A program made the position numbers and the translations under genes. Positions 1,196 through 62,192 of a stretch of DNA of 64,000 nt are shown piece by piece. Position 1 is the first letter of the stretch, and the number at the start of each line of letters is the position of its first letter. Origin of the DNA: Alphaproteobacteria bacterium (GTDB taxonomy: Bacteria; Pseudomonadota; Alphaproteobacteria; MPNO01); assembly GCA_965200535.1 (NCBI GenBank), contig CBDAUF010000001.1, positions 1,162,102 to 1,226,101 on the forward strand, in the 5' to 3' direction. The notes beneath the pieces were generated by a model. That model searched no databases, had not been told where the DNA came from, and was given only the letters and a program-made list of their open reading frames with translations.

Positions 1196-2131
1196 CCATG
1201 GCCCGCGCCGCCAGCAGGCCGGCGACGGCCAGCCCGACGCCCCAGTGCAGCAGGCTCGCCCCCTCCGGGGTGTTGAACAGGATATGGACCGAATGCGGCG
1301 AGATGAAGCTCTGCGCCGTCAGCACGACCGGCGGCAGGACGCTCAGCACCAGCAGCGTCAGGCGGGTCTGGCCGGTGGCGGCGTGCGCCTTCATCGCCGT
1401 GTTGCGCTGCTCGCGCAGCGCATCGGCGAGGTTGGCGAACGCGGCCGACACGCCGCCGCCGGCGCGCCGCTGCAACTGCAGGACCGCGGCGAATAGGGCG
1501 AACTCGGGGAGCCGCACGCGCTGCGAGACGGTCGCCAGCGCGGTGTCGGCGTCGAGGCCCGCGGTCAGCCCGTCGCTGACGCTCTTGAGCACCGGCTGGA
1601 CCGGCGGCCGCGCGTCCTCGGCGACCACCGCGATCGCCTCGATCGGCGGCACCCCGGCGCCGGAAAGCCGCACGATCTGGTCGATGATTTCGGGGAACTG
1701 GTTGCCGAACTCGGTCGCCAGCCGCTTCTGGCTCCACGAGAACGCGTACCATGCCGCCCCCGCGCCGGCGAGAGCGACGATCGGCCACGTCCACCAGCCG
1801 GTCGGGATCACCAGGAACCGCATCCCGATCCACGATCCCGCCGCCGCCGCGATCCCCAGCAGCAGCGCGCGCGGCAGCGTCCGCCCGACATCGAGCAGCG
1901 GGTAGCGGGCCTCGAGCATCCGCCGCAGCCGGCCGGCCCGCCGGCCGCCTTCGGTGCGGAAGATGTCGACCTCCTCTGCCGCCGCGCCCCCGTCGTCGCG
2001 GCCAGTGAGCGGCCCGGCCGCGCGCCGCAGCCGCCGCCGGAACCCGCTGTCGTCGCGCCGCAGCCGCAGGAACAGGAACAGTCCGAGCAGGGTGCTCGCG
2101 CCGCCCCCGATATAGATCAGCAGGGCCGTGC

Positions 2132-2135
<4 letters not shown>
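1176..2135 (-). CDS. tadB: Flp pilus assembly inner-membrane protein TadB (T2SS-F domain)
   Basis: The TadB-like C-terminal two-thirds of ORF 1176..2501. The likely start is TTG at 2135, overlapping the tadA stop (TTGA). The upstream part of that ORF lies in tadA and is an artefact. Confidence 0.7.
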
Positions 2136-3577
<1,442 letters not shown>

Positions 3578-3580
3578 CGA

Positions 3581-5602
3581 TCAGGCCTCCGCCCAGGCCG
3601 CCGGCAGGTCGGCCGGGGCCGGCGCCAGGATGCGTTCGGCAAGGGCGGCGGCCGGTTTGCGCAGCCGCCGGGGAAGCCGGCCCTGCGGCCAGCCGCGGCC
3701 GGCGAGATCCGGCACGGCGGCCTGGAACGGGACGACGATGCCGGGCGGCCTCTCGACCCCCGCCTCGGCCAGCAGCCCCGCGCCCGCGTTCCGCCGGAAC
3801 GCGCGCGTATGGTTCTGCACCAGCGCCACCGGCGCATTCGCGCCCGTCCCCATCGCCGCGAGGATGTGCGCCGCGCGCTGCGCGCCCGCCGTCGTCGGCT
3901 CGACCACCAGCACCCGCGCGTCCACCTCGGCGAGCAGCGCGAAGCAGGTTTCCGGATCGTCCATCCCGTCCACCAGCACCAATTGCGAGCGCCGCCGCAG
4001 CAGCGCCAGCAACCAGTCGAGCGCCGCCATCGGCGGCACCGGCGGCGGCTCCGGGCCGAGGCGGTAGGCGTAGACCGCGATCCGGTCCGACCGTTCGGTG
4101 CGCACCCCGTCGAGCACCTGCGGGTCGGAGAGGGTCGGCCCCGCCATGTCGAAGAGCTGGTCGAGGCCGGGCGCCGGGTCCACGTCGAGCTGGAGCGCCG
4201 CCGCGGCGACCGTCCGGCCGAGATCGAGCACCGAGACATAGCGCCCCTGTTCCGCCGCGCGCAGCGCGGTCGTGGCGGCGAGCGTGGTCGCCCCGCTGCC
4301 GCCGGTGCCGGCGAACCCGGCGACCCGCCCGCCGGCGTCGAAATCGTCGTCGTCGGCCGTGGCCCGCGCGACGGCCGCGCGCACCGCCGCCGCATCGATC
4401 GGCTTGACCAGATAGTCGCTGACCCCGGCGAGCAGGATTTCGCGCCCCGTGCGCGCCGTGTCGTAGGAGCCGACGGCGATCACCGCCGTGCCGACCTCGC
4501 AGACCTCCGCCAGCTCGTGCAGCGCACCGGCCGGATAGCCGACCCCGTCGATATCGACGATGACGAGCTGGGCCGACTGCCCCTCGCCGAGCGCCGCCAC
4601 CGCGGCGCGCAGTCCGCCCGGCCAGACCTGCGGATCCTCGCAGCCGGGCGCCTGCCCCTCGAAATAGAGCAGCCCCTCGCGCAGCGCATTCTCGGTCTCC
4701 CCGTCCGTCGCGAAGGCGAGCGCCGCCGGCGGCCCCGCGGGCGCCGGCTCGGCGGGCGCATCGGGCGGTGCGGCATCGGCGCCGGGTGCGGTGTCCGGCA
4801 GGGTGTCCGGGGCGATGCCGGGGATGGTCTCCGGCGCGGCAGCCGGGGCGCCGGCGGGACCGGGCGGCGGGTCGGGCGCGAAGTCCGATAGGAGATCGGC
4901 CGCGAGATCGGCCCCGAAATCGTCGGCCTCCGGCGCTTCCGGGCGGTCGGGCGCGCCGGGGGGAAAATCGTCGAGCCCGTCCAGCAGCGCGGCCGCGAAA
5001 TCGGCGCCGGGCGGCTCCGCGCCGGGGTCCGGCTCCGGCGCGGCGCGGTCTTCCGGGTCCCGCACGCCGGCGGCGGCGGGACCGTCGGTCGGTGAAATAT
5101 GTGAAAAGTCGGCCGGATCGTCCTCGAACCCGTCCAGGAGCGCGCTCGCGAAATCGGTGTCGGGCGGGCCTGCTTCCGGCGCCGGCTTCGACTCTGGCGC
5201 GGCGGGGGCGGCGAACGCCGCCGGGGCAGGCGCGGCGTCCGGAGCGGCGGCGGGCGCATCGTCCGGGGGGCGGGCGTCTTCGTCATCGGGCGGAAACTCC
5301 GCGAGGCCGTCGAGCAGCGCGCTCGCGAAATCCGCATCGAACGGATCCGTATCGGACGGGTCTGCTTCGGACGGGGCCGTTTCGTGCCGGGTCCGCCCGG
5401 TATCGTCGGGTGTCGGCGGTTGCGCAGGGTCCCCGGCGTCCGCCGGCGCACCCGCGTCCACCGGCGCATCGTCGACGGGTCTATCGGCGGCGGGCGGATC
5501 GTCGGCCAGCCCCGCCAGCAGGGCGCTTTCGAGGTCGGCATCGACCGGCGGCGGATCGTCCGCCCGTCGCGCGGCTGTGTGCGGGGAGGTGTCGTGTGCC
5601 AT
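3581..5602 (-). CDS. tadZ: TadZ/CpaE pilus-assembly protein (receiver-like plus MinD/ParA-like ATPase) with a ~300-aa acidic repeat-containing N-terminal extension
   Basis: The C-terminal ~370 aa carry a receiver-like fold and the deviant Walker A (AGTGGSGATT). The N-terminal extension is Asp/Pro/Ala-rich and holds 5 copies of a D-[FL]-[AE]-S-A-LL-DG-L-x-[DE]-F-PP motif. The true start within the extension is unknown. Confidence 0.75.
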   Translation of the reverse strand: MAHDTSPHTAARRADDPPPVDADLESALLAGLADDPPAADRPVDDAPVDAGAPADAGDPAQPPTPDDTGRTRHETAPSEADPSDTDPFDADFASALLDGLAEFPPDDEDARPPDDAPAAAPDAAPAPAAFAAPAAPESKPAPEAGPPDTDFASALLDGFEDDPADFSHISPTDGPAAAGVRDPEDRAAPEPDPGAEPPGADFAAALLDGLDDFPPGAPDRPEAPEADDFGADLAADLLSDFAPDPPPGPAGAPAAAPETIPGIAPDTLPDTAPGADAAPPDAPAEPAPAGPPAALAFATDGETENALREGLLYFEGQAPGCEDPQVWPGGLRAAVAALGEGQSAQLVIVDIDGVGYPAGALHELAEVCEVGTAVIAVGSYDTARTGREILLAGVSDYLVKPIDAAAVRAAVARATADDDDFDAGGRVAGFAGTGGSGATTLAATTALRAAEQGRYVSVLDLGRTVAAAALQLDVDPAPGLDQLFDMAGPTLSDPQVLDGVRTERSDRIAVYAYRLGPEPPPVPPMAALDWLLALLRRRSQLVLVDGMDDPETCFALLAEVDARVLVVEPTTAGAQRAAHILAAMGTGANAPVALVQNHTRAFRRNAGAGLLAEAGVERPPGIVVPFQAAVPDLAGRGWPQGRLPRRLRKPAAALAERILAPAPADLPAAWAEA

Positions 5603-5831
5603 CCGGCGCCTCGGCGGCGGGGAGCCCTAAATCGGTTCACCCATGCGTCGGTTCACGCAAAACGGGACGGGAGGGGCCCTGCCCCTCCCGCCCGGCGGGC
5701 GGCGGAGAGCGCGGAAAGGTCCCCGCGTCTCCCGCCGCCCCTGTGTTCCGCGGCTGTTTCTACCCTTCTTCGGGGGTCGGGATCGCGTCCTCGGACTCGG
5801 TCTGGATGCTGGTGCCAATAGCCTCAAGGGC

Positions 5832-5978
5832 CTACTTCATCTGACCGCTGAAAGCGGCGATCCCTGCCCCGGCGGCGGTGACGACCACACCGGCGAGGAT
5901 TGCGTATTCGAGGGCGGAGACGCCCTTGTTGCCGCGGAGGAAGGGACGGACGCGCCGCCATACATGCTCGATCTTCAT
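5832..5978 (-). CDS. flp: Flp/Fap-family pilin precursor (MKIEHVWRRVRPFLRGNKGVSALEYAILAGVVVTAAGAGIAAFSGQMK)
   Basis: 48 aa with the G/xxxEY prepilin motif (KGVSALEYAIL) followed by a hydrophobic helix. This is the C-terminal part of ORF 5832..6431. The printed sequence has a 1-nt discrepancy in this stretch. Confidence 0.8.
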   Translation of the reverse strand: MKIEHVWRRVRPFLRGNKGVSALEYAILAGVVVTAAGAGIAAFSGQMK

Positions 5979-6298
5979 CTCAGAGGTCCTTTCCTGGGTT
6001 GGAGAGAGAAGGGTGGTGAAGGAAGGGGTCGCGGCCCGCCCGGCGGGCGGACGCGGTGGATACGCACGCACGAAAAATTCGGCAGCGACGGGGAAATTGC
6101 GCGATTTTTCCGGCGGAACCGGAAATTTCGCACTGCGCGGATCGGGACAGGATCGCCATCGCCTCTTCGCACTCCCCGCCGTCGGGTTCTGAAAGCTCTC
6201 GTTGCCAACGCAACTGTTGCCGGTGCAATGGATGCGTTCGCAACTGCTTTCGCAACGCTGCGACAAGACATCGAATCCGGGAGCGATGCACTTTGGCA

Positions 6299-6589
6299 GG
6301 GTGTCGCACCCCCGCCCGGCGGCGGGTTCCGGGGGCGGAATCGCCGCCCGCGGCGGGGCGCGCGCCCGCCGCCGCGCCGGCCCGCCCGGCCGCACCGCAA
6401 CCCGCCGCCGCAACCCGCACCGTCTCATCACGCCATTGATTTACAACGGTTTTTCAGACCGCCTTCGGTGCCGCACGGGGCTTCGCGAGGGTCCGCGCGC
6501 CGGGCGCAAGCGTCCGCACTGCGTCACGGCGTCGCACCCCCCGGCCGGTGCCCCGGCGGGCGCGCTGCGTCACGGAGTCGCACCCCCGG
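6299..6589. promoter_or_regulatory. three copies of GTCGCACCCCCGG, two of them within near-identical ~25-nt direct repeats (CTGCGTCACGGCGTCGCACCCCCGG / CTGCGTCACGGAGTCGCACCCCCGG), in the 620-bp region upstream of flp
   Basis: Direct reading shows copies at about 6305-6317, 6526-6545 and 6572-6589. They lie between the TadE-like gene and flp, on the flp promoter side. Confidence 0.3.
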
Positions 6590-6600
6590 AGGGGCCGGAG

Positions 6601-7299
6601 TCAGGGGGTGGGCTGGCGGACCGGCGCCGCCGGCTGGCGGCGGAAGTCGCGGACGGGCAGGATGTGGACCCGGTAGAGATCGCCGGCGATCAGCCGGTTG
6701 GAGAGCATCCCCTCGCGCAGCGGGCGCGAGCAGACCTCGACGATGACCGCCGTCTCGCCCTCGCCCAGGCTGTCGCTCGCCTGCGGGCCGAGCAGCCGCG
6801 TCTTCCAGCCGTCGGCGGCGCCGGCGGTGCACTTGGCGGCGAGCTCGTCGGTGGCCTCCTTGGCGCCGATCCGGATCGTGTCGTCGGTCCACAGCGGCGC
6901 CGTCGGGTTGCCGCCCTGCGGCTGGTGGACGGCGGAGACGGCGATGACCGCCGCCGCCGGGGCGGCGAAGTCGTGGCGGTGCAGGAACTTGCCGAGCGCC
7001 TCCATCCCGTCGCCGTCGGGATCGGTCTCGAACGAGACGTACTCCGCCACCGCGACGGCGCTGCGCGCGCTGGCGGTGTCCACCCGGAGCAGCGAATAGA
7101 GGTCGAAGCAGACCGCCGACACCGCCAGCAGGCAGACCGCCCCGAGGGCCATCTCGAGGGTGGCGGCGGCGCGGGTCCCGCACACGAGCCGGCGCAGCGA
7201 ACGCCGCAGCCGGACGGTGCGCAGCAGGGCGGGCGGCCTGCGGAAGGGCGGAAACGGCAGCGCGGGCAGAGCGGGCATCTCAGCCGTCCGGCGTTTCAT
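6601..7299 (-). CDS. TadE/TadF/TadG-family pseudopilin-like protein
   Basis: N-terminal TadE-like segment RRLVCGTRAAATLEMALGAVCLLAVS. The start is uncertain, with ATG candidates at 7299 and 7278; the ORF extends to 7353. Confidence 0.55.
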   Translation of the reverse strand: MKRRTAEMPALPALPFPPFRRPPALLRTVRLRRSLRRLVCGTRAAATLEMALGAVCLLAVSAVCFDLYSLLRVDTASARSAVAVAEYVSFETDPDGDGMEALGKFLHRHDFAAPAAAVIAVSAVHQPQGGNPTAPLWTDDTIRIGAKEATDELAAKCTAGAADGWKTRLLGPQASDSLGEGETAVIVEVCSRPLREGMLSNRLIAGDLYRVHILPVRDFRRQPAAPVRQPTP

Positions 7300-7381
7300 G
7301 GCGCGCCACCGCGACCGCGACATTCTGCCCGGCCTCGTCCCCGCCGCCGGCAAGCTGGCCGAACTCCCACGGCTCGGGGGT

Positions 7382-7810
7382 CTAGGCGAGGCGGACCAGG
7401 ATCATCTCGCCGCCCCCGCCGGCGCCCGAGCCGGTCCCCGCGCCCGTCCCCGCCGCGTCGAGCAGGGCGGAAGGCGCGAGGCCGGTCTCCACGGTCAGCG
7501 TCCAGCGGTTGGCGCAGTCGAAGTCGTCGGCGAGGTCGAGTTCGCGGCGGATCGCGGCGCAGGCGGCCTGCGCGCCGTCCGCCGCCGCGTCCGGGGTCAG
7601 CGCCACGGCGCGCGCCGCCGCCCACGCCGCACGCCCCATCATGTCGCCGACATAGCTCGCGCGCACGATCTCCGCCAGACCGGCGAAGGCGATGACGAGA
7701 ACGGAGATGGCCAGCGCCGCCTCGAGGGTGACCGCCCCCCGCCGCGATCCGGCGAAGGGGAGAAGCGAGGCGGCCGCAGCCGCCCGGCCACGGGCGAAAA
7801 TCCGGTTCAC
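7382..7810 (-). CDS. TadE-like pseudopilin protein
   Basis: SRRGAVTLEAALAISVLVIAFAGLAEIV TadE-like N-terminus. The likely start is GTG at 7810 with GGAGG placed 5 nt upstream; the track ORF extends to 7915. Confidence 0.6.
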   Translation of the reverse strand: MNRIFARGRAAAAASLLPFAGSRRGAVTLEAALAISVLVIAFAGLAEIVRASYVGDMMGRAAWAAARAVALTPDAAADGAQAACAAIRRELDLADDFDCANRWTLTVETGLAPSALLDAAGTGAGTGSGAGGGGEMILVRLA

Positions 7811-7970: not shown

Positions 7971-9140
7971 TCACTCGCCGCGGTCGCTGCCGACCAGCGC
8001 GACCGCCCGCTGCATGGCCTTGCGGTAGGCGCGGCCCGGCCGGCCGGCGGCGCCGCCGGTGGCGCCCGCGTGCAGCGCCCGCTCGAACGGGATCACCGCA
8101 CCCGGGCGGCGGTCGGCGAGGGCGTAGCGGATATGCGCCGGCGACAGGGTGTAGCGGCGCATCCGGGTCGAGCACTGGACCAGCAGCGCCGGGGAGTCCG
8201 CCCCGAGCCGGGCCAGCAGGCGCACCGCGGTCGAGATGCTGGGCAGGGTGGGTTCGTAGACCAGCACCCTGCCGTCGGCCTGGCGCATGACCGCGAGCTG
8301 GGTCTCGGGGTCGGGCATCCCGGTCGCCAGCACGACATGGGTGCGGTTGGCCAGATACTTGAACAGCGCCGCCAGCACCGGCGCGGTGCGCGGCTTTTCC
8401 AGCCCGGCGGCCGGCGGGTGCGCGACCAGCGAGATGCCGGGGGCGGCGGGCGTCGTCAGGCCGCCGATCCGGTCGGGGTCGATCTCGAGTTCCGCATCGC
8501 CCTCGCCCTCCCCCTCGGCAATGGCGGCAGCGGCGGCGGCGGGCGTCCCCAGCAGGGCCGGCAGCCCGCCCACCGGCTCGGCCCCGAGCAGCGGCGGCAG
8601 CCGGCCCGAGACGGGGTCGAGATCGACCACCGAGGCGGTGCGGCCGTCCGCCGCGATGCCGCGCGCGACCGCGGCGACCAGGGTGGAGGTGCCGCTGCCG
8701 GGGCTGCCGGCGAAGGCGATCACCTTGCCGGCGTAGAGATGCTCGGGCGCATCGTCGGCGACCGCCGCCGCGGCCTCGCGCACCGCCGCCGCGGTCACCG
8801 GCTTGACCAGATAGTCGGCGATGCCGCACTGCATCAGCGTCCGGCCGAACTGCGCGGTGTCGGTCGAGCCGAGGGCGACCAGCGCGGTGTCGAACGCGCA
8901 GACACCGGTGAGCTGCCGGGCCGCCTCGCCGGGCTCGGCCGCGCCGTCGAGATCGACGAACACCAGCTTCGCCGGCGGCTCCGCGGCCAGCGTCCTGACC
9001 GCGGCCGCCAGGCGTCCGCGCTGTATCCGCGCATCGCGGCCGGCGAGCCCGGCGCGCAGCGCTCGCTCGGTCGCCGCGTCGGCCGCGAAGCCGCGCGCCC
9101 ACGGGCGCTTCGAGGGGCTGCGCCTGGGCGAGGTCGCCAT
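7971..9140 (-). CDS. second CpaE/TadZ-family protein (receiver-like plus MinD-like ATPase)
   Basis: Deviant Walker A (AGSPGSGTSTL), receiver-like segment KLVFVDLD...YLVKP. The ATG at 9140 (MATSPRR...) was chosen; the ORF upstream to 9572 is Arg/Gly-rich junk. Confidence 0.75.
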   Translation of the reverse strand: MATSPRRSPSKRPWARGFAADAATERALRAGLAGRDARIQRGRLAAAVRTLAAEPPAKLVFVDLDGAAEPGEAARQLTGVCAFDTALVALGSTDTAQFGRTLMQCGIADYLVKPVTAAAVREAAAAVADDAPEHLYAGKVIAFAGSPGSGTSTLVAAVARGIAADGRTASVVDLDPVSGRLPPLLGAEPVGGLPALLGTPAAAAAAIAEGEGEGDAELEIDPDRIGGLTTPAAPGISLVAHPPAAGLEKPRTAPVLAALFKYLANRTHVVLATGMPDPETQLAVMRQADGRVLVYEPTLPSISTAVRLLARLGADSPALLVQCSTRMRRYTLSPAHIRYALADRRPGAVIPFERALHAGATGGAAGRPGRAYRKAMQRAVALVGSDRGE

Positions 9141-10138: not shown

Positions 10139-10239
10139 ATCCGTTCTCTCCACCCGACCGGTTCCACGTGCTCCTTCGCGGCCTCGTTCACGATCCCGGC
10201 GATACCGTTCTCCAGCGCCCGAACGATGGCTTCCGCCAT
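10135..10239 (-). CDS. 34-aa peptide MAEAIVRALENGIAGIVNEAAKEHVEPVGWRERI, a paralog of the N-terminus of the 10453..10695 gene
   Basis: Hand translation. About 43 nt of near-identical DNA is shared with 10633-10676. It is translationally coupled to the downstream gene. Confidence 0.35.
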   Translation of the reverse strand: MAEAIVRALENGIAGIVNEAAKEHVEPVGWRERI

Positions 10240-10452
10240 CGCGCGAAGCCTTTAGCCGGCGTAGCCGGCGTTTATCGTCCAGCCGCGACGCGGTCCTGCG
10301 AGCCGCCGCCGGCGGTTCCGGTCAGGGATCGGGTCCCCTTTGAAACGGCGCTCGAACCCGTGCCCTGCGACGGTCCCGGCGCCCTCGAGGGGTTGCCCGT
10401 TCGGGGGCCGTCGTCCGGACGGGCGGTCCTGCACGACCGGCGGACCGTGCGT

Positions 10453-10695
10453 TCAGACCGATTTGTCCGGCCAGTCGCCGGTGCCCCTGGCATAGGCGAT
10501 CTCGCCCCGGATCTCCGCTATATCCGACTTCAGGTCGGCGATGTCCTGTTTGGTCGCCATGTTGGCGGCTATGGAGTGCCGCAGCGCCTCCACCGACGCC
10601 TTGACCGGTTCTATGTTCTTCTTGACGATCTCGGTGATGCCGTTCTCCAGCGCCCGAACGATGGCTTCCGCCATCGCGTCATCCTTGGCCGACAT
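10453..10695 (-). CDS. 80-aa coiled-coil protein, DUF1640-like (…MATKQDIADLKSDIAEIRGEI…)
   Basis: Lower-GC ORF. It has an N-terminal MAEAIVRALENGI segment and the ATK-DIA-L heptad segment reminiscent of DUF1640 proteins such as 53916..54383. Confidence 0.5.
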   Translation of the reverse strand: MSAKDDAMAEAIVRALENGITEIVKKNIEPVKASVEALRHSIAANMATKQDIADLKSDIAEIRGEIAYARGTGDWPDKSV

Positions 10696-10983
10696 TTCCT
10701 ACGCTCCGGTTGACGAGCCGACTATCGGTTCGCCCCATATACTGCATCGGGATGATCCTGTCAATCACTCAACCGGGGATAGCGGTGCGCACGAAGACCC
10801 GCATGAAGCGGGAAACGGGCCCCTCGCCGAACCGGGGGGACGGGCAGGGCTTCGGTGCGGGAGATAACGGATCGCAGGGTGGACTTGGCATAGCTCTCTC
10901 ATGCCGGCATTCGCAGGGCCGGCTAATCTGGTACTGAAAAATACTCGATAATCCGGCGTTCGACCGCGCCAACGGGCGGCCGT

Positions 10984-12129
10984 ATGCTGCGGGCGCGGCC
11001 CGGCGCGTCAGGCGCCCGCCTCTCCCCGCCGCCGGCGCAGCGAGGACACCGGTTGACGCTCGAGAACGTCGAGGCCATCGCGCCCAATCTGAAACGCCGG
11101 CTGTCGGGCATCACCGCGACGGTGGTGCGCCTGCTGCCGGTGCAGGCGCGGTCGATCGGCATCGCCGCGACCGGGCCGGGGCTGCCGCCGCAGGTGCCGC
11201 AGGTGCCGCTCCGCTCCGTGCTGCTGATGCCGGGGCGGAAACGCCGGGTGTGGCATGCGCGGCGCAACAACGAGATGCTGCTCGGGCTGGTCCTGCGCCA
11301 CGTGCTGGGCAAGCGCCTGAAGCTCGTGTTCACCTCGGCATCGCGGCCCGAGCACAATCATTCCCGATACAAGCGCTGGCTGCTCTCGCGCATGGATGCG
11401 GTGGTCGCGACCTCGGACGGCACCGCATCCTACATCGGCGCAATCTCCCGCTTGCGGCAGCCCCCGCAGGTGATACCGCACGGCATCGATACCGGGGCCT
11501 TTTGCGCGCCCGCCGACCGCCGCGAGCAGCGGCGCGCGCTGGGCCTGCCCGAGGGCGTGACCGTCGGCTGTTTCGGGCGCATCCGCCGCCACAAGGGCAC
11601 GGATGTGTTCGTCGATGCGATGCTCGACGTGCTGGCGCGCCGCGCCGATGCGGTCGCCCTGGTCATGGGCCGCGCAACCGGGAAGCACCAAGCCTATCTC
11701 CGGGCGCAGCGCGCCAAGGTTGCTGAGGCGGGGCTGGAGGGCCGCATCCTGTTCCTGCCCGAGGCGCCGGTGGACGACATGCCGCGCTGGTACCGGGCGC
11801 TCGACCTGTTCGTCGCCCCGCAGCGCTGGGAGGGGTTCGGCCTCACCCCGCTGGAGGCCATGGCCTGCGGCGTCCCGGTGGTGGCGACGACGGCGGGCGC
11901 GTTCGAGGAACTGGTGGTCGATGGCGGGACCGGCCGCCTGGTGCCGCCCGGCGACGCCCGGCGGATGAGCGCGGCGGTGGGCGAGGCGCTCGATGCCCCC
12001 GGCACCCTCGCCCGGTGGTCGGCGGCGGCCCGCCGCCATGTCGAGCAGGGCTTCCGGATCGAGGACGAGGCGGCGGCGCTGAACGCGCTTTACCGCAAGT
12101 TGCTGGACGGTGATGACGGGGGTGGTTGA
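10984..12129 (+). CDS. GT4-family glycosyltransferase
   Basis: EGFGLTPLEAMACGVPVVAT motif and a Rossmann-like GT-B C-terminal half. The start may instead be TTG at about 11053. Confidence 0.8.
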   Translation: MLRARPGASGARLSPPPAQRGHRLTLENVEAIAPNLKRRLSGITATVVRLLPVQARSIGIAATGPGLPPQVPQVPLRSVLLMPGRKRRVWHARRNNEMLLGLVLRHVLGKRLKLVFTSASRPEHNHSRYKRWLLSRMDAVVATSDGTASYIGAISRLRQPPQVIPHGIDTGAFCAPADRREQRRALGLPEGVTVGCFGRIRRHKGTDVFVDAMLDVLARRADAVALVMGRATGKHQAYLRAQRAKVAEAGLEGRILFLPEAPVDDMPRWYRALDLFVAPQRWEGFGLTPLEAMACGVPVVATTAGAFEELVVDGGTGRLVPPGDARRMSAAVGEALDAPGTLARWSAAARRHVEQGFRIEDEAAALNALYRKLLDGDDGGG

Positions 12130-12376
12130 GCTGGCCGATAATGGCGGGAAACCGTCGCCGCAGTACCCGAGTCGCTGCGCACATTGATTGGAAAGCCCGG
12201 CCCCGTGGAGAAAGCGCGTATCGAGGAGTTTCTTTCTATAGCGAACCCCGACTGGGGTCCGACCGGCGACCGTTTTCCCGAGCACCGCCCGATCGCCCAT
12301 ATTCGCGATCCGGCGGGACAGTTGGTATGATATATCGAGTTGCGTTTACTTCAGCAAAAGCGATCCGGTCGGACGA

Positions 12377-12784
12377 TTGATCGCGTCCTGGGCGGCATTC
12401 TGTCGCGACCATCGCAATGTCTGGGATCAGCTTCTCCTGACCCTGGCGTGGTTTCGCGTGGCAAAACACATGCCAATCGCCAGCCTTTGGCTGAATGAGG
12501 GAATTTTTCGGTTTCCCCGACCGAGAATACGCGACTGGCGCGACCGTGTCTTCTATTACCCATACAAGCGTAAAATTCGACCGTTCATCGATCAGAAACA
12601 AGCCTCGCGCTCGCTAAAATCGTTCATAAATGCATCCGGGAACAGCGCCGGAATGCAAGGGGAAGAACTGGGCTCAGAAAACGTTTCTTCGGGCTTCCGC
12701 AATGCATTGAAACGCTGTGATTTCAGTTTCGATGCGCGAATTGAGACCATTCTACCCCCCCCCCCCCGCGGGGGACAGCGATAG
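12377..12784 (+). CDS. hypothetical protein (low-GC island); its 3' end contains the poly-C tract (…ILPPPPRGGQR)
   Basis: ORF-track entry only, with no recognisable family. It ends in TAG-TAG immediately before the next ATG. Confidence 0.25.
   Translation: MIASWAAFCRDHRNVWDQLLLTLAWFRVAKHMPIASLWLNEGIFRFPRPRIRDWRDRVFYYPYKRKIRPFIDQKQASRSLKSFINASGNSAGMQGEELGSENVSSGFRNALKRCDFSFDARIETILPPPPRGGQR
12755..12767. repeat. homopolymeric C13 tract followed by GCGGGGG
   Basis: Counted directly in the sequence. It lies 21 nt upstream of the ATG at 12788 and inside the last codons of ORF 12377..12784. Confidence 0.9.
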
Positions 12785-12787
12785 TAG

Positions 12788-13546
12788 ATGACAGCCAGGC
12801 GAAAATCGCGCCTGGAGCGCCTTCTGTCCTTGAACTGGCACCGCAAGCGCTGGGGTGCTTCGAAGCATGTCGCCGCCGGCGGGAGAGGCGACCTCTCCGC
12901 CATGAAGACGGATATCGTCGAGGCGGGAACGCCGATACAGACACGCGGTTCCGAGAAGTCGCTCGATCTCCACCTCGCCAATCTCCGGGACGAGTTCTCG
13001 GGACAACCGGAATTGATTTGGTACCATGCCAAGCTGATCGTCCTGATCAGACGCGAGTTCCGCACATCGGAAAACTATTCACAATTTCGGTTGCTTTGGG
13101 ATGCCGAACACACTTTTCTGTGCGAGAATCTGAACATCCGATGGCTGGTTTCGGCAGCGGACACCATTGCTGATCATGACCGGGATCCCGAGATACGCGC
13201 GGCGGCGATGATGGCGACCCTTCTCGTCAACACCATCAAGATGCAGGAAAGCGAGCGCTACGTGTGCGATGCGTCGAGCTTGCCGCCCGATCCTGCTCGC
13301 ATCACCCGTCTCGGGAACGAATTGGTGCCGCTCTTTTCCGGGATGTCCTCTTTCTCGGTAGGCACCGACGATACGCTCAGGAACATGTACTGGCGGCTTG
13401 AGCCGTTCTTCGGGGCCGGACCGGGGGGAAAAATCCTGAAGACAGTCTGGTCCCGGCTCCAGGTCGAAGACACGGTTTTCGCCCGAATGCGCAAACTGCA
13501 CCGCCGCAACCGTACGCGCTGGTGGGACGATACCGATCAGCGCTGA
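12788..13546 (+). CDS. hypothetical protein (252 aa, low-GC island)
   Basis: Longest ORF in the region, preceded by GGGGGA 12 nt upstream. No recognisable family. It is convergent with the GT25 gene. Confidence 0.4.
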   Translation: MTARRKSRLERLLSLNWHRKRWGASKHVAAGGRGDLSAMKTDIVEAGTPIQTRGSEKSLDLHLANLRDEFSGQPELIWYHAKLIVLIRREFRTSENYSQFRLLWDAEHTFLCENLNIRWLVSAADTIADHDRDPEIRAAAMMATLLVNTIKMQESERYVCDASSLPPDPARITRLGNELVPLFSGMSSFSVGTDDTLRNMYWRLEPFFGAGPGGKILKTVWSRLQVEDTVFARMRKLHRRNRTRWWDDTDQR

Positions 13547-14328
13547 CCGCCGATGAAATGGCTGCGGTCGAGGCGGATTTGACGGCGTCGGGCATGATGC
13601 GCATGGCACAGCACCCGGACCGCGATCCCCATCTCGATCCCTATGCGACGCAGCCGGAAACCGGGGGTCCACCGTCTTACTCGCTTCTCGCGGTCGGCAC
13701 CGATAGTCGAGGGAGCCCGGATCGGCGCTGCCAGACCGTACCTGGCGGCGCGGTCGAGTTGTACCGCACAGGCCGGTTCGATCTGGAAGCTGCGCAGTTC
13801 GTACGCCAGACTGATTACAGCATCGGCAGGCCCGGCCCTGCGCGACGCGTTCTCCAGAAGCATCCTCGCCCCGGACGGCCATAACAGATAGGCAACCGCG
13901 CCGCTGCGGTCCTGGAAGAGCCTGTGAAGCCGATGTTCCGGCGTGAGGTGCCGGCCCGCGCGTGCAACGGTCTTGCGCTGCTGCCGAACTTCGAGCGTCA
14001 GGCGATCGATCTCCGCAAGTTGTCCGGCTGCCGCCAGAACGCCGGGTGTATGCGCTGACAGGATGGCGTCGTCCTCGAGGATGAGAACCGGCATTTCCAT
14101 CTCGGCGACCCGGTTCCAGGCGGCGATATGGCTGAGGAGACAGGCGCGTTCGGCGTCCCCCAGCGGCCTTGCCCAACTGTTCCAGTAGCTGTCGCTTCGC
14201 GCCGTCGAGGCGTCGCCGGACTCGACGGCCTCGAGTCTCTCGAATTTCAGCCCGAGCCTGTCGAGCTGCTCGCTCATGAATTTCATGCGCTCCGTTTCGG
14301 CGGCGAGATTGATTACCAGACAATGCAT
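13537..14328 (-). CDS. GT25-family glycosyltransferase (LPS/LOS core galactosyl-transferase-like)
   Basis: MHCLVINLAAETERMKFMSEQL N-terminus typical of GT25. The ATG at 14328 was chosen; the upstream MDRIRTNCEDRP segment is a translated copy of the 44-bp repeat. Confidence 0.75.
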   Translation of the reverse strand: MHCLVINLAAETERMKFMSEQLDRLGLKFERLEAVESGDASTARSDSYWNSWARPLGDAERACLLSHIAAWNRVAEMEMPVLILEDDAILSAHTPGVLAAAGQLAEIDRLTLEVRQQRKTVARAGRHLTPEHRLHRLFQDRSGAVAYLLWPSGARMLLENASRRAGPADAVISLAYELRSFQIEPACAVQLDRAARYGLAAPIRAPSTIGADREKRVRRWTPGFRLRRIGIEMGIAVRVLCHAHHARRRQIRLDRSHFIGGQR

Positions 14329-14448
14329 GCCAGTCTTTGACAACGGTATCGGGGCGTGGTGCGGGGTCAGGAACGGCGCTCTCGCTTCCACGGACGGGTA
14401 AGGCCCGACCGGGATTCCTTGAGCGCCGAATCTCCGGTCTCGACTACC

Positions 14449-14492
14449 GGGCCGATCCTCGCAGTTCGTCCGGATGCGGTCCACCGCCGGCG
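14449..14492. repeat. 44-bp direct repeat, copy 1 (GGGCCGATCCTCGCAGTTCGTCCGGATGCGGTCCACCGCCGGCG), 121-164 nt upstream of the GT25 start
   Basis: 42 of 44 positions are identical to copy 2 at 16405..16448. Confidence 0.8.
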
Positions 14493-14548
14493 TGGCGAGC
14501 CCGTACCGCGCGGGACGTCGAGAAGCGCTTCTCGAAGCCGCGGCTGCC

Positions 14549-15151
14549 TTACCCCGCCGCTCCCGAGACCCGGAGCAGTCGGCTCACATCCCGCCACAGC
14601 TTGTCGAAGGAGGGCGCCGCCGCGCGCGCCGCGTCCATATCGAAGCGGGCGGTAAACGAAGCCTGGTGGAGTGTTTCGCGATAGGTCTTGCCCGGCCGCA
14701 TCCGCGCGGCCAGCCAGCCTTTCGCATTCGCGATCGCCTCGGGGTTGCCCGGCGGCGCGACGGCGGGATCGGCGTCCCGCCATTCGATCAGCGACGCGGC
14801 CGCCGCGATAAACCAAGCCTCGTATTCCATCTTCGCCAGCACCGCGCAGACGGTCCGGTCCGGTCTGGCGTCGCGGGCGCGCTGCAGGAGTTCCGGCGCG
14901 AGCCTCGCCGGGCAATCGCCGTTGGCGTCGAACAGGAGCAGGATACAGCCGTTCGCTGCCGCCCTTCCGGCGGCGAGGTCGATGGTGCGTTCGAGTTCGC
15001 CGCCTCGCAGGATGCGGTTGCGGCTCACCCGGATCGGCCTCGGGATGTCGAGCGCGATATCGGGCGACACCTGTGCGGCGATCCGGCGCAGCAGCACCGG
15101 AACCGCCCGGACCTCGCCATGCCCCTCGACGACGGTCGCTATTCGATGCAC
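14549..15151 (-). CDS. DUF4276-like protein (possible Toprim-like partner of the upstream ATPase)
   Basis: GTG at 15151 overlaps the ATPase 3' end by 13 nt. N-terminal VHRIATVVEGHGEVRAVPVLLRRI and C-terminal MEYEAWF motifs as recalled for DUF4276. The remaining 5' part of ORF 14549..16090 is artefact. Confidence 0.6.
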   Translation of the reverse strand: MHRIATVVEGHGEVRAVPVLLRRIAAQVSPDIALDIPRPIRVSRNRILRGGELERTIDLAAGRAAANGCILLLFDANGDCPARLAPELLQRARDARPDRTVCAVLAKMEYEAWFIAAAASLIEWRDADPAVAPPGNPEAIANAKGWLAARMRPGKTYRETLHQASFTARFDMDAARAAAPSFDKLWRDVSRLLRVSGAAG

Positions 15152-16362
15152 GCGCCGGGACCCGGGCCGAACAGATCGATGCGGCGCGGCGCCGGCCTCG
15201 AAGCCTCGGGATCCGGCTCGATCTGGTCCATCCTGAGCAGTTCGCCCGCGGTGTACAGGCGCTTCTTCAGGGCCGCACGGCCGACCTCGTCGAGCGGGCC
15301 GATACGGCTCTCGCCGTGCTCCAGCGCGACGGCAATAATCGATTCCGCAGGAATATCCTCGTCGTCGAGCAGGTCGGGGCTGTGGCTGGTCACCAGGATC
15401 TGCGCGTTGTCCGCGGCATCCCTGAGGCTGTCGATCAGGACGCCGAAGGCGGCGGGGTGAAGGGCGATCTCCGGCTCCTCGATACCGACGAGCCGCCGCG
15501 CCGCCCCGGCGGTTCCGGCACCCTGAAAGACCGCGGTCAGCACGCCGAGCGCGCGCAGGGTGCCATCCGACATGTTGGCGGCGAGAAAGCGCCACGGATG
15601 CTGCGCACCGCGAACCTCCTGGCGAAACTCCAGGGTCTCGCGCGGTCCCACCGGGCGCCGGTCGACGCCGTCGATGCCCGGCGCGACCTCGCCCAGATAG
15701 TCCTCGATTCTCCGCTTGAAATCGGGTGCGCGCGCGGCGAGGCCGGAGAGGACGCTCGCCAGATTGCTCCCGTCGCGTTTCAGCAGCGTTCCCGGATCCG
15801 GCGGCTGGAGGTCGCGGATGGCTTCCGGGTTGAGATTGTAAACCCCCGTCGACGACAGCGCCTCGTAGACCGGGCGGAAGGCATCGATCCCGGAGACCGC
15901 GACCAGATACAGGCGGTCGGCGGCGGCGAGCGGGGCCGGCGAGACGGTGATCCGGCGAACCCGGCCCTTCTCCACCCTGAAATAGTGCGAACCCGATCCG
16001 TCCCGCGCAATCGACAGGCACTCCTCGCTGCGCACCGCGTATCCACGGTCGGGCATGGAGCCGACCGTGAAGGCGTAGTGTCCGCGCCACGCCTCCAAGC
16101 CGAATTCGACGCGAATCCCGAAATGGTTGGGATGGCCGCCCGAGCGCCGGCGCACCTCGCCGATGCCGCCGCGGTCGCGCAGCGCGTGGTCGATCGAGAA
16201 GCGGAGCGCATCGGCGACGAAGTGGAGGGCGTCGAGAAAATTGCTCTTCCCCGATCCGTTCGGCCCGACGAGGAAGGAGACCTGCGCCGGCGAAATGTCG
16301 CAGGCGCCGATGCTCTTGTAGTTTCTGAGCCTTATCCGCGTCAGTAGTCGGCGGTCAGGCAT
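15139..16362 (-). CDS. AAA_21/AAA_15-type ABC ATPase (OLD/AbiLi/AriA-like)
   Basis: Walker A GPNGSGKSN, Walker B IGIEEPE, TSHSP. ATG at 16362 with GGAGG upstream. The first 26 codons of the track ORF are a translated repeat copy. Confidence 0.8.
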   Translation of the reverse strand: MPDRRLLTRIRLRNYKSIGACDISPAQVSFLVGPNGSGKSNFLDALHFVADALRFSIDHALRDRGGIGEVRRRSGGHPNHFGIRVEFGLEAWRGHYAFTVGSMPDRGYAVRSEECLSIARDGSGSHYFRVEKGRVRRITVSPAPLAAADRLYLVAVSGIDAFRPVYEALSSTGVYNLNPEAIRDLQPPDPGTLLKRDGSNLASVLSGLAARAPDFKRRIEDYLGEVAPGIDGVDRRPVGPRETLEFRQEVRGAQHPWRFLAANMSDGTLRALGVLTAVFQGAGTAGAARRLVGIEEPEIALHPAAFGVLIDSLRDAADNAQILVTSHSPDLLDDEDIPAESIIAVALEHGESRIGPLDEVGRAALKKRLYTAGELLRMDQIEPDPEASRPAPRRIDLFGPGPGACIE

Positions 16363-16404
16363 CTCCAGCCCTCCAGTCGGTCGGTGCGCCGGCGCCGGGA
16401 CGGC

Positions 16405-16448
16405 GGGCCGATCCTCGCAGTTCGTTCGGGTGCGGTCCACCGCCGGCG
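16405..16448. repeat. 44-bp direct repeat, copy 2, 43-86 nt upstream of the ATPase start
   Basis: See copy 1 at 14449..14492. Confidence 0.8.
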
Positions 16449-16458
16449 GCAGCGCGGG

Positions 16459-16992
16459 CTATGCCCCGCCGACGAATTCGGGCATGGCTTCGGCCGGCGC
16501 CCAGGGGCCGCCGCCGAGCTTCAGCTCCTTGCCGGCGATCAGGTTGGCGGCCATGCGCGCGCCGGCGCCGACGATGAGTTCCGCCGTCACCCAGTCGCCG
16601 CGCCGGCGCAGCCTCTTGAGTTCGCCGACCACCATGTCGATTTCGCGCGCGGTCAGCCGGGCGGCCTTGCCCGCCGCGTGCTTCGACAGCATCTCGCGGG
16701 CGGCGCGCTCGAACTCCTTCTCCGGGATGGCGCTGGCCGGGTAGCGCAGGTGCACGACCTGCTGGACGAAGGATCCGTCCCGCGTCACCGCATCGTCCAC
16801 CCGCGCCTGTCTGCCGAGGCTGGAGGACTGCACCTTGACCTCGAACCCGGCGCTCCGGGTCCGGGGGTGGAAGAGTTCCGCGCCGCGCGTGAAGACGCTG
16901 TGCTCGACCTCCTCGACGACGGCGTCGTAGCGGCGCCTCACCGTCCTGCCGCCGACCGCCGCCCTCCCCGTCCTCGGGCCCGCGCCGCGCAC
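16459..16992 (-). CDS. hypothetical protein (…VVEEVEHSVFTRGAELFHPRTRSAGFEVKVQSS…), possibly the C-terminal part of a frameshifted gene
   Basis: Protein-like composition. The true N-terminus appears to lie in the other frame (17000..17626). Confidence 0.4.
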   Translation of the reverse strand: MRGAGPRTGRAAVGGRTVRRRYDAVVEEVEHSVFTRGAELFHPRTRSAGFEVKVQSSSLGRQARVDDAVTRDGSFVQQVVHLRYPASAIPEKEFERAAREMLSKHAAGKAARLTAREIDMVVGELKRLRRRGDWVTAELIVGAGARMAANLIAGKELKLGGGPWAPAEAMPEFVGGA

Positions 16993-16999
16993 CCGGCCG

Positions 17000-17626
17000 C
17001 AGCGCGGGGATGCCGGCCTCCATGGCGATCATCCCCGACCCCCGCAGGTCGTCGGCGAGTGCGAGGATCAGCGTGCGCGGGAAGCGGCCGATCTCGGTCT
17101 TTCCGTCGGCGTCGGTGATGCGGACGAAATAGCCGCCGTGCTCGGGCGGAAAATCCACCCGGAGGTTGGTCCTGCGGCCGAACTCGGCCAGCGCCGCCGC
17201 GTCGCTGTCGGAGACCGGGGAGAAGGCGGGCGCTGCGCCGTCCGCGCCTGCGGCGGGCCAGTACGCCTTGGTCTCCACCAGCGCCCGCTCGCGCACCCGG
17301 AAGTCCCACAATGCGCGGGTGGTCTCCTCGCGCCGGCGGTTGGACTCGCGCCACGCTTCCGCCGGCGCCGGCTCGGCGGCGGGCGCCGGGCCGGGGGGCG
17401 CCGCCAAGGCCTGCACTAGGCGGCGGACGATGTCGGGATGGCGTTCCGGGTCGATCCCGGGGACAGGGGCGGGGGCGAGGCCGGGGCCCGGCCCCGGGAT
17501 CGACCCGGCTTGCGGCGCGGCCTCCGGGGCGGCGGAGTGCCCGGCGAGGGGCGGGAGAAGCAGCGCCGGCAGGGGCAGGCGTGCGGGCGGCGCGGCGCGG
17601 CGCCCGGCCGCGGACGGGTGGATCAT
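17000..17626 (-). CDS. exported protein N-terminal portion (signal peptide MIHPSAAGRRAAPPARLPLPALLLPPLAGHSA, Pro-rich linker); frame continues as junk after ~17000
   Basis: Part of ORF 16355..17626. The protein-like part ends where ORF 16459..16992 begins, suggesting a frameshift in a G-rich run near 16940-17000. Confidence 0.35.
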
Positions 17627-17817
17627 GGCGGTCTCCAGCGGGTCGGGAAACGGGGGGCTGCGAACGAGAAACGCCGCCGGTGCGGAGGCCGGCGGCGCTA
17701 TCTCGCGAGCCTGGCAAATCTACCCCGGATCGCGTCCCGCGTCAAGAGATTTTTTCATATGAGGAAAATTACTGCTCGGTATATCGGATACAGGCGCGCC
17801 ATTTTGCGGTATGGGGA

Positions 17818-18345
17818 TCAGAACGGGATCGAGATCGCCTCGTGCACCGCATCGCAGTTGAGCAGCGTCGCCTTCTTGGCGGCGATCAGGAAACTGCCGC
17901 CGCTGCGCACCAGCCGATAGTCGTAGCGCCCGCCGAAGCAGCGCTGGCCGTGGCCCGGCCGGTAGTCGAGCATGACGAACCGCGCGCTCACCTCGTAGGC
18001 CCCGGCCGCCGGATCGGGCGGCTCGACGAGAAGGTTGCCGAGCGTGTGGCTGGTCCGGCTGTGCGGAATCTGGGCGTGCACCCTGGGGTGGCGCAGCCGG
18101 GCGAGGCGAGTGGTCATCAGCTCGCGGTCGTCGAAGAACAGCGAGACGTGCTCCCACGGGTCGTCCTGGTCGACCGCCGCCGGCGCCCAGTAGGTCCCGT
18201 CTTCGGTGAACAGGGCGGTCCAGTCCTCGAAACGGCGGTCGTCGAGCAGCCCGACCTCGCCGATCAGGAAGCGCTCGATCTCGCGCGTCAGCAGCAGTTC
18301 GGCAAGCGCCGCCCCGCCCGCCGCCGTCTCTCCGCCCCCCGGCAT
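17818..18345 (-). CDS. aromatic ring-hydroxylating dioxygenase beta subunit
   Basis: 175 aa, NTF2-like small-subunit pattern. It sits immediately downstream of the alpha subunit. Confidence 0.75.
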   Translation of the reverse strand: MPGGGETAAGGAALAELLLTREIERFLIGEVGLLDDRRFEDWTALFTEDGTYWAPAAVDQDDPWEHVSLFFDDRELMTTRLARLRHPRVHAQIPHSRTSHTLGNLLVEPPDPAAGAYEVSARFVMLDYRPGHGQRCFGGRYDYRLVRSGGSFLIAAKKATLLNCDAVHEAISIPF

Positions 18346-27521: not shown

Positions 27522-27608
27522 GCGGTCGTGGCGGAATTGGTAGACGCGCAGCGTTGAGGTCGCTGTGGGAGCGATCCCGTGGAAGTTCGAGTCTTCTCGA
27601 CCGCACCA
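27522..27608 (+). tRNA. tRNA-Leu (anticodon GAG), type II with long variable arm, CCA encoded
   Basis: Cloverleaf folded by hand. 7-bp acceptor stem GCGGTCG/CGACCGC, anticodon loop TTGAGGT, T-loop GTTCGAGTC, 3' ACCA. Confidence 0.85.
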
Positions 27609-59426: not shown

Positions 59427-59624
59427 GACGGCAACTCTCCCCAAGTCCAGCGTCCCTAGACGATCCAGCGTGACAGCCGCCGGGTCCCCGGGCAAGCGGC
59501 GTCCGAACGATACCATCGGAGCGACGGCCCGAACCTGAACCAGAGCCGGCGCCCGCTTCATCCGCACACGGCGATGAAGACAACAGGGGCCCGAAGGCTT
59601 TCGCGATCGGCGGGCCAGTGTGCC

Positions 59625-61331: not shown

Positions 61332-61793
61332 CGATCATTTCTCACCGTTGCAGCGCCCGACTTGGTGATACACGCGAAAGATAAATTCGTCAACAAGAGA
61401 GATAATGACAAACGCAAACAGCGTCCGGGAAGCCGGCTCTCTTCGAGAACCTGGCAGCGGCATCTGCTGTGCCGCCGCAAAACCCGGCGGGTCAGCCGAG
61501 ACCCTCGCGATGGGAATTATACGCTTGGCTAGCCAGAGTTGGAATCTGTATCAGGATTCCATGGCGATACCAAGCCGAGGCAAAGATCGAGACGCCTAAG
61601 GGTGCTCGGAGCCAAACCTTCGTGAGGCTCTATTCCGGGTTCAAGCACATGGCGCTTGCCGTCGGGGGAGGCCAACCTAGTGAAACCTCCCCACTCGTTG
61701 CTTCCTGCCTGATCTGCTCGACCGCCTTCACCACCCAGTCATTCGCAGTATTCGGCGAAGGTAGGGAACGACTGGAACGGATGCGCGGACACC

Positions 61794-62096: not shown

Positions 62097-62192
62097 CCCT
62101 TGGAGAGACGATCCAATAGATGGAGATTTTCCTTGTCAAGAGGGTTGACGCTGCCCCCTTTTCTCTTATATTACTAGCCAGAGATAGACGGG

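Follow-up and report, generated by a model that had tools for sequence, protein, structure and literature searches.

A solitary HEC-01 cassette, an ABC ATPase gene overlapping a DUF4276 gene, bracketed by a duplicated host sequence in an alphaproteobacterial genome

The ATPase-DUF4276 operon and its surroundings

The window analysed here, a stretch of 64,000 nucleotides (nt) from the genome of an alphaproteobacterium of the MPNO01 lineage (GenBank assembly GCA_965200535.1, contig CBDAUF010000001.1, positions 1,162,102 to 1,226,101), contains two overlapping genes on the minus strand, one for an ABC ATPase of 407 amino acids (aa) and the other for a 200-aa protein of the DUF4276 family. Judging from profile comparisons of both products, the two-gene operon belongs to HEC-01, a candidate anti-phage family that is already catalogued in PADLOC. 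Together with 41 nt upstream and 56 nt downstream, the two genes make up a cassette of about 1.9 kilobases (kb) that contains no integrase or transposase gene and is bracketed by two copies of a 45-nt direct repeat. The features of the cassette are, in window coordinates:

14448 to 14492, no strand assigned: downstream copy of the 45-nt direct repeat (repeat search)
14493 to 14548, minus strand: 56-nt 3' tail of the putative inserted unit, holding a palindrome (junction read-out)
14549 to 15151, minus strand: HEC-01B, DUF4276, Toprim-like putative metal-dependent nuclease, 200 aa, GTG start (open reading frame (ORF), Pfam, PADLOC)
15139 to 15151, minus strand: 13 nt common to both genes, from the DUF4276 GTG start to the ATPase stop (sequence)
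15139 to 16362, minus strand: HEC-01A, ABC-type (AAA_21/AAA_15, SMC-head-like) ATPase, 407 aa (ORF, motifs, Pfam, PADLOC)
16363 to 16403, minus strand: 5' end of the putative inserted unit, a 41-nt leader that separates the ATPase ATG from the upstream repeat (junction read-out)
16404 to 16448, no strand assigned: upstream copy of the 45-nt direct repeat (repeat search, family D3, 96% identity)

The ATPase, which starts with ATG, possesses all the sequence hallmarks of an ABC ATPase: Walker A (GPNGSGKSN, residues 33-41), a signature-like motif (MSDGT, 264-268), Walker B with the D-loop (LVGIEEPE, 291-298) and the H-loop (TSHSP, 325-329). In Pfam, AAA_21 (E = 3.7e-27), AAA_15 (3.7e-18) and SMC_N (7.9e-12) each score above the respective cut-off, and the PADLOC model of HEC-01A, PDLC04178, aligns with nearly the entire protein (E = 2.4e-155, 515 bits; residues 4-390 against model positions 6-389 of 399). 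The heads of PtuA, OLD and SMC for which structures have been solved show only weak sequence similarity to it.

The small protein contains the motifs VVEGHGE (residues 7-13), FDANGD (74-79) and MEYEAWF (108-114) and matches a single Pfam family, DUF4276, over almost the full profile (E = 1e-13; positions 1-190 of 192). The PADLOC model of HEC-01B, PDLC04196, covers residues 3-194 (model positions 3-193 of 197; E = 9.8e-72), the only other PADLOC match being a marginal one to PDC-M25B, and no NCBIfam model matched this protein. These findings bear out the core of a first-pass annotation made from the letters alone, which had described a 407-aa ATPase with GPNGSGKSN, IGIEEPE and TSHSP motifs, overlapping by 13 nt a 200-aa protein that was assigned to DUF4276, in part through MEYEAWF, and had proposed the pair as a candidate anti-phage system.

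In an alignment of 48 homologues that are 55-70% identical to the query, 33 columns are invariant, including E9, E13, D75, E109 and E111, and D79 is nearly so. The AlphaFold2 model obtained from the homologue alignment (predicted local distance difference test score 90, predicted template modelling score 0.87) has strands at residues 2-8, 69-75 and 100-106 with helices between them, and the conserved acidic residues are located at the C-terminal ends of strands: E9 after beta1, D75 and D79 after beta3, and E109 and E111 after beta4. The C-terminal ends of these strands are where the catalytic residues of Toprim domains reside, and the two marks of such a domain, a conserved Glu after strand 1 and an acidic motif of the DxD type after strand 3, are both present, the latter with DxxxD spacing. 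A PDB sequence search with the DUF4276 profile gave no meaningful match, and Foldseek retrieved nothing from PDB under E = 0.01. The GTG start is consistent with the family: 47 homologues open with MxRIATIVEGHGE, and the N-terminus matches them position by position in the alignment. The publicly available gene call (P0001, 182 aa) begins 18 residues after the family-consistent GTG and thereby loses the invariant V8, E9, G10, G12, E13 and P18; its start is probably mis-annotated.

The two genes are adjacent and co-oriented, the arrangement expected of HEC-01, and their 13-nt overlap suggests translational coupling within a single operon; in homologous pairs, the overlap is 4 nt (locus L001) or 16 nt (L002). 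The 56-nt tail past the DUF4276 stop holds an 18-nt perfect palindrome, TCGAGAAGCGCTTCTCGA (14518-14535), which might form a hairpin, act as a terminator lacking a U-tract, or serve as an operator or another protein-binding site. Neither a sigma-70 consensus nor a canonical intrinsic terminator was found in 14200-16600, a non-consensus promoter being still compatible with the sequence.

The upstream copy of the 45-nt repeat begins 11 nt past the stop of an orphan 160-aa gene (orf160) and stops 41 nt short of the ATPase ATG, whereas the downstream copy follows the DUF4276 stop at a distance of 56 nt and precedes the start of a GT25 glycosyltransferase gene by about 120 nt. The copies are identical at 43 of the 45 positions and are the only two in the window, against a chance expectation of 0 in shuffled sequences; they are spaced by 1,956 nt, and the genes enclosed are exactly those for the ATPase and the DUF4276 protein. 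With one copy upstream of the ATPase and the other beyond the end of the DUF4276 gene, the repeat encloses the cassette on both sides. The first-pass annotation had reported a conserved 44-bp element upstream of the pair; an upstream copy is indeed there, but it is one half of a direct repeat of 45 nt. Two other identities for the repeat were considered and rejected. It does not behave as a structured RNA, with z-scores of -0.07 to +0.86 for either strand of both copies, no better than shuffles, and the Rfam search over 12000-18000 yielded no match except for one chance hit (E = 0.97); nor does it resemble a promoter or terminator, given that neither consensus occurs in the region searched, with the same reservation for a non-consensus promoter. 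Under the simplest reading, the ancestral order was orf160, a single copy of the element and GT25, and the cassette then inserted, duplicating host sequence. We infer that the window's own copy of the cassette is an insertion; no empty site for it was found.

The genes nearest to the cassette are:

10984 to 12129: GT4 glycosyltransferase
13540 to 14328: GT25 glycosyltransferase
16462 to 16941, minus strand: orphan 160-aa ORF, strongly coding-like, with a GC content at third codon positions (GC3) of 0.94

In its base composition, the pair hardly differs from its surroundings, with a GC content of 0.692 compared with the window mean of 0.690 and a GC3 of 0.84-0.85, modestly under the 0.89-0.95 of core genes. 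Thus, the pair does not sit in a low-GC block, as initially thought; the actual low-GC stretch (12130-14330, GC 0.605) is adjacent to it and is likely to have been horizontally acquired itself. Nor does the pair lie between lipopolysaccharide glycosyltransferases, because GT4 and GT25 are both on the same side, with a 252-aa ORF without a Pfam match between them. The GC3 of GT25 is only about 0.74, and GT4 also passes the Pfam 'GT4-conflict' model at 58 bits, below its generic glycosyltransferase matches. The other side of the pair is occupied by the 160-aa ORF, an 870-nt gap without genes, a two-subunit Rieske dioxygenase and an AllG homologue. The 160-aa ORF is classified as an orphan gene because it has no Pfam match and, among 5.8 billion proteins, matches itself alone. 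The gap, which extends from the dioxygenase beta subunit to the orphan ORF, contains a 22-nt inverted repeat (17446-17508; 91% complementary, 19-nt spacer).

Several features of the window are farther removed from the pair. A 57-nt direct repeat (10187-10243 and 10622-10678; 93% identical, 435 nt apart) has its copies inside two small minus-strand ORFs without Pfam matches. At 188-7401, a tad/flp pilus cluster, recognised by reading the translations alone, includes TadB/C-like, CpaF-type ATPase, CpaE-like, Flp pilin and TadE-like proteins. A single tRNA-Leu(gag) gene is located at 27522-27608. A second low-GC region spans 59000-64000 (GC 0.55-0.62), where the ORFs at 62193-62624 and 62688-63191 resemble, from their translations and without a profile search, an IS1595-type transposase split into a zinc-ribbon and a DDE ORF.

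Relatives of the pair and mobility of the family's cassettes

In a genomic scan that included one genome per species, at least 563 relatives were found, and in each of the 80 loci that were kept, the ATPase gene lies directly upstream of the DUF4276 gene. The family is large: an exhaustive profile search identified 3,235 clusters at 50% identity with E <= 1e-3, of which 869 had E <= 1e-30. The top genomic matches come from Alphaproteobacteria, Acidobacteriota, Gemmatimonadota, Spirochaetia, Actinomycetes, Binatia and others, nearly all of them metagenome-assembled genomes (MAGs), and the distribution of HEC-01 across phyla is patchy. Two loci encode a second, divergent HEC-01A-like ATPase directly downstream of the DUF4276 gene (L020, 6679-7842, 36% identical to the query; L089, 6734-7918, 48%) and may be tandem systems. 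An apparent natural fusion of the two proteins (P0162, 609 aa) is probably a frameshift artefact because its linker reads as an out-of-frame translation of the ATPase C-terminus, and it was not used as evidence. Likewise, the apparent synteny of the window with L001, L012 and L022 through the Rieske dioxygenase was dismissed as a coincidence, the proteins being merely 27-33% identical.

The cassettes found in different species are 89-95% identical in DNA over approximately 1.95-2.1 kb, and their flanks share nothing. Examples are the pairs L051/L087 (95.5% over 1,949 nt) and L025/L045 (93.6% over 2,116 nt), as well as L025/L030 and L025/L026 (about 89-91%). Because such similar copies occupy unrelated genomic contexts, the cassettes are horizontally mobile. 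The homology between cassettes extends from 20-150 nt before the ATPase start to 85-160 nt past the DUF4276 stop. A promoter-like stretch that is conserved and a GC-rich hairpin fall within it; terminal inverted repeats and fixed ends were absent from the compared cassettes. In three related alphaproteobacterial genomes (L011, L012 and L022), the cassette is found at differing positions on the same AsnC/transketolase backbone. The reverse situation, a conserved location, is observed in Longimicrobiales and related MAGs of Gemmatimonadota (L016, L023, L029, L032, L038, L077, L080 and L083), where the cassettes are 64-82% identical in DNA compared with 80-90% for the 4-kb upstream flank; this suggests either replacement of cassettes at a hotspot or a much faster evolution of the cassette itself.

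The bracketing repeat of the window has counterparts elsewhere. With the exact-protein look-ups added, the collection comprises 106 loci, which fall into 60 independent contexts. In 56 of them, direct repeats shared by the two flanks of the pair, 600 nt on either side, could be sought. A repeat score of at least 37 was reached in 4 of these 56 contexts and in none of 214 equally spaced control windows (one-sided Fisher test, p = 0.0017), where the best score was 21. The four contexts are the window (45 nt), L002-L005 (130 nt), L011 (90 nt) and L052. Their repeats are mutually unrelated and, therefore, are derived from the host rather than from the element.

The arrangement in L002-L005 was recovered from several separate metagenome assemblies. 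In L002, the copies (8382-8511 and 10599-10728) are 130 nt long and 97% identical, and the same holds for L003-L005. The repeated sequence corresponds to the 3' end of a gene for an acyl-CoA dehydrogenase, whose intact end is on one side of the cassette; on the other side is a 47-codon fragment that begins 1 nt past the DUF4276 stop. The four mismatches between the L002 copies are all synonymous, at third codon positions and within the first 30 nt, a pattern more reminiscent of a functional gene's two alleles than of a fresh duplication in decay. Because of this allele-like pattern, a homologous-recombination (Campbell-type) route appears to be favoured over staggered-cut transposition. In the search for an empty counterpart of the L002 insertion, the closest relatives of its acyl-CoA dehydrogenase (P0272 and P0388) proved to share 86% of amino acids but only 75-81% of the DNA sequence with it and to be located in different contexts.

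In L011, the copies (4552-4641 and 6666-6755; 90 nt, about 88% identical) correspond to the 3' end of a gene for an AsnC-family regulator, the copy on the far side being a decaying fragment. L052 differs in that the cassette interrupts the third tandem paralogue of an AAA-ATPase_like gene. A clean target duplication was rejected for this locus: because the repeat is the N-terminus of the interrupted paralogue, L052 is counted as an insertion into a gene family and not as a de novo duplication.

Probable role in phage defence and its alternatives

The function that we consider probable for the pair is phage defence by an ATPase sensor coupled to a Toprim nuclease. HEC-01A would be the sensor and regulator that holds HEC-01B in a complex or otherwise controls it, and HEC-01B would be a Toprim-like metal-dependent nuclease; upon detection of a phage cue, HEC-01A would license HEC-01B to cut nucleic acid, the target being tRNA if PARIS is the model and DNA if OLD and Gabija are. 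Cleavage would stop the phage from replicating, and the cell might be sacrificed in the process. The cassette itself would have arrived by horizontal transfer; its site is between the orphan gene and GT25, where it is bracketed by the duplicated 45-nt host sequence. In favour of this reading are the near full-length matches to HEC-01A and HEC-01B, far stronger than those to other systems that pair an ATPase with a Toprim protein, the intact ABC motifs, the invariant residues at Toprim-like positions and the placement of the ATPase gene directly ahead of the DUF4276 gene in all 80 relatives. The patchy distribution of the family, the non-syntenic cassettes with 89-95% identity and the Longimicrobiales locus, where the cassettes are less similar than their flank, are all typical of conflict genes. 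Published work points in the same direction. HEC-01, one of the 'Hma-embedded candidates', was described as an ABC ATPase with a TOPRIM-like partner, and HEC-01B as structurally TOPRIM-like with a predicted metal site that matches that of the OLD protein of B. pseudomallei (Payne et al., bioRxiv 10.1101/2024.01.29.577857). DUF4276, which the first-pass annotation regarded as a domain without an assigned function, has since been placed in the Toprim superfamily, complete with catalytic residues, and is represented by Mad4 of the MADS system, of which it is a homologue, by an effector domain of NsnC in Menshen and by HEC-01B. A HEC-01 homologue from a cold seep is reported to have made E. coli B resistant to one or more of the phages T4, T5 and T7 (2026 Nature Communications study).

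Several observations weigh against a role in defence. The HEC-01 system tested upon discovery gave E. coli MG1655 no protection against the BASEL collection or classic coliphages (bioRxiv 10.1101/2024.01.29.577857), and the sole positive phenotype report, that in Nature Communications, is sparse in details. These plaque assays, one negative and one positive and both of other HEC-01 members, are the only phenotypes on record; the abortive infection suggested in the first-pass annotation would be one possible outcome. The acidic motif after beta3 is DxxxD in place of the canonical DxD. The family hardly occurs in plasmid records (3 of 72,556) or phage records (1 of 50,697). The genomic neighbourhoods are not supportive either: among the ten neighbouring proteins in the window, none has a PADLOC match at E <= 1e-5, so that the surroundings of the cassette are not the typical defence island that had been initially assumed. 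Of the eight contexts, the window included, that were read through Pfam annotation, six are solitary insertions amid metabolic and transport genes, namely, the window and contexts beside a Rieske dioxygenase with AsnC, an acyl-CoA dehydrogenase, two opp operons, a CMD protein with a PQQ propeller, and YccV with an NHL protein. In L090, AbiEi/AbiEii are found 4 kb away and HigB 5 kb away. In L107/L028, the cassette adjoins genes for a 1,331-aa helicase, a DUF1998/MZB protein, a HATPase_c_3 protein and a PhdYeFM antitoxin, a setting that, from its gene content, resembles a defence island and speaks for a role in defence. The survey of homologous pairs that was proposed at the outset thus returns mostly solitary cassettes amid housekeeping genes but, given L107/L028, not a family that is never found in defence islands; the association of this subfamily with such islands is weak.

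The alternative that fares best, albeit with a low probability, is that the pair is a selfish mobile or addiction cassette which mainly ensures its own spread or retention, either by post-segregational killing in the manner of toxin-antitoxin modules or even by promoting its own insertion, with any phage defence being incidental. Much of what has been described above fits such a cassette: the unit is small and self-contained, with promoter-like and hairpin sequences of its own; it moves among unrelated contexts without a recombinase gene; it is accompanied by host-derived flanking repeats more often than the controls; it inserts at or inside gene ends (the 3' ends of the acyl-CoA dehydrogenase and AsnC genes) or within a tandem paralogue; it mostly stays outside defence islands; and the discoverers of HEC-01 observed no defence. 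However, these cassettes lack conserved terminal repeats and fixed ends, and the flanking repeats are retained in only about 7% of the contexts and can be explained by homologous recombination of the host, the copies in L002 differing, like alleles, at synonymous sites only. Moreover, many defence systems are equally patchy and mobile, and one HEC-01 did protect its host.

It is rather improbable that the pair is an orphaned or accessory module, that is, Mad3-Mad4 of MADS, a part of Menshen or a unit embedded in Hma, which alone would have no activity or only a modulatory one. This possibility comes to mind because DUF4276 and AAA_21 proteins occur as the accessory pair Mad3/Mad4 within the eight-gene MADS operon, HEC-01 was discovered embedded in Hma systems, and the HEC-01 pair alone conferred no defence in E. 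coli. The window ATPase, however, is far from Mad3 (89 bits with the MADS3 model, compared with the cut-off of 420), the small protein has no NCBIfam match, and the lack of PADLOC matches among the ten neighbours implies that MAD6-8, Hma and NsnA/NsnC are absent there. Furthermore, the 80 relatives are, without exception, strictly two-gene units scattered over many unrelated contexts, and the invariant catalytic residues are kept in both genes. Because of this strict architecture and the invariance of the catalytic residues, the pair appears to be an autonomous unit under selection.

None of the explanations tested here accounts for the host-sequence duplications combined with mobility in the absence of a recombinase. 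A more radical proposal, for which we see slightly less chance than for the orphaned module, is that the HEC-01 pair by itself amounts to a minimal, self-sufficient mobile element: a two-gene cassette of about 2 kb that moves between genomes, inserts in or beside gene ends although it has no integrase or transposase, and duplicates 45-130 nt of host sequence. The ATPase and the Toprim nuclease might themselves make staggered breaks or, alternatively, the flanking repeats might permit excision of a circle followed by re-entry through homologous recombination. If the first of these routes were in operation, a 'defence' ATPase-Toprim pair would, in addition, mobilise itself. Least probable is a housekeeping pair for DNA repair or recombination akin to RecF-RecR, SbcCD or OLD-like repair nucleases: RecF-RecR combines its domains by the same logic, and the N-terminus of the ATPase weakly matches RecF, SMC and Rad50 (TIGR00611, 5e-9; SMC_N, 7.9e-12), but the matches to these families do not extend beyond the Walker A region (residues 7-50) and are well short of the family cut-offs, the pair is sporadic, variable in location and evidently transferred between contexts, and genuine recF and gyrB are located elsewhere, for example, in L002.

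As a gene pair, the locus adds little to what is already known, given that HEC-01 is included in PADLOC and is flagged by PADLOC-based annotation. The family, though, is large and spans phyla, and the reports on its phenotype are conflicting. A member from a high-GC alphaproteobacterium whose catalytic residues are intact lends itself to experiments in a host other than E. coli. The host-sequence duplications, along with near-identical cassettes in unrelated contexts, offer a testable handle on the movement of tiny defence cassettes without recombinases, a process that is commonly left at 'horizontal transfer'.

Comparison with known systems

The closest of the known systems is HEC-01 itself, to whose models both window proteins align at near full length, in the same order of genes, the ATPase followed by the Toprim-like protein, and with which the ABC ATPase shares its features. 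The difference lies in the context: HEC-01 was discovered embedded in Hma systems, which the model does not require, whereas the window pair is solitary amid glycosyltransferase and catabolic genes. The other PADLOC models of systems that combine an ATPase with a Toprim protein match the ATPase far more weakly.

The pairing of an ABC ATPase with a small Toprim protein is also found in RecF-RecR, but the window ATPase resembles RecF in the Walker A region only, and the pair is sporadic and horizontally transferred. OLD and GajA carry both domains on a single polypeptide, in contrast to the two overlapping ORFs in the window, and the matches of the ATPase to Old (2.4e-19) and GajA (1.4e-12) are partial; Gabija additionally requires the helicase GajB, and there is no helicase near the window pair. 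AbiLi/AbiLii (RloB) and NsnB/NsnC of Menshen are similar in combining an AAA_21-type ATPase with a small partner of the Toprim superfamily. The small protein in the window, however, does not match RloB/AbiLii, and AbiLi is weak on the ATPase (2.8e-22); as for Menshen, NsnA and the N-terminal module of NsnC are missing, and the match to NsnB is weak (1.1e-15).

MADS shares with the window both components, an AAA15/21 ABC ATPase (Mad3) and a DUF4276 partner (Mad4). Nevertheless, the window ATPase matches mad3 only weakly (6.7e-22) and scores 89.2 bits with the NCBIfam MADS3 equivalog NF047739, whose cut-off is 420, and none of mad1, mad2 and mad5-8 was detected by PADLOC among the ten neighbours of the pair; MAD6-8 are mandatory for MADS according to the MADS paper.

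The best mechanistic template is PARIS, which likewise consists of two genes, for an ATPase sensor and a Toprim effector, and in which a trigger releases the nuclease that then cleaves tRNA. The components are not the same, AriB being a DUF4435 protein, whereas the DUF4276 protein of the window has no AriB match, and the ATPase matching AriA solely through the shared AAA_21 core (1.2e-27). The logic common to OLD, PARIS and AbiL that was noted in the first-pass annotation is upheld by the literature, where HEC-01 is presented as an ABC ATPase with a TOPRIM-like partner and where the PARIS paper counts both MADS3-4 and AbiL as systems that join an AAA15/21 ATPase to a TOPRIM protein, a recurrent architecture of defence.

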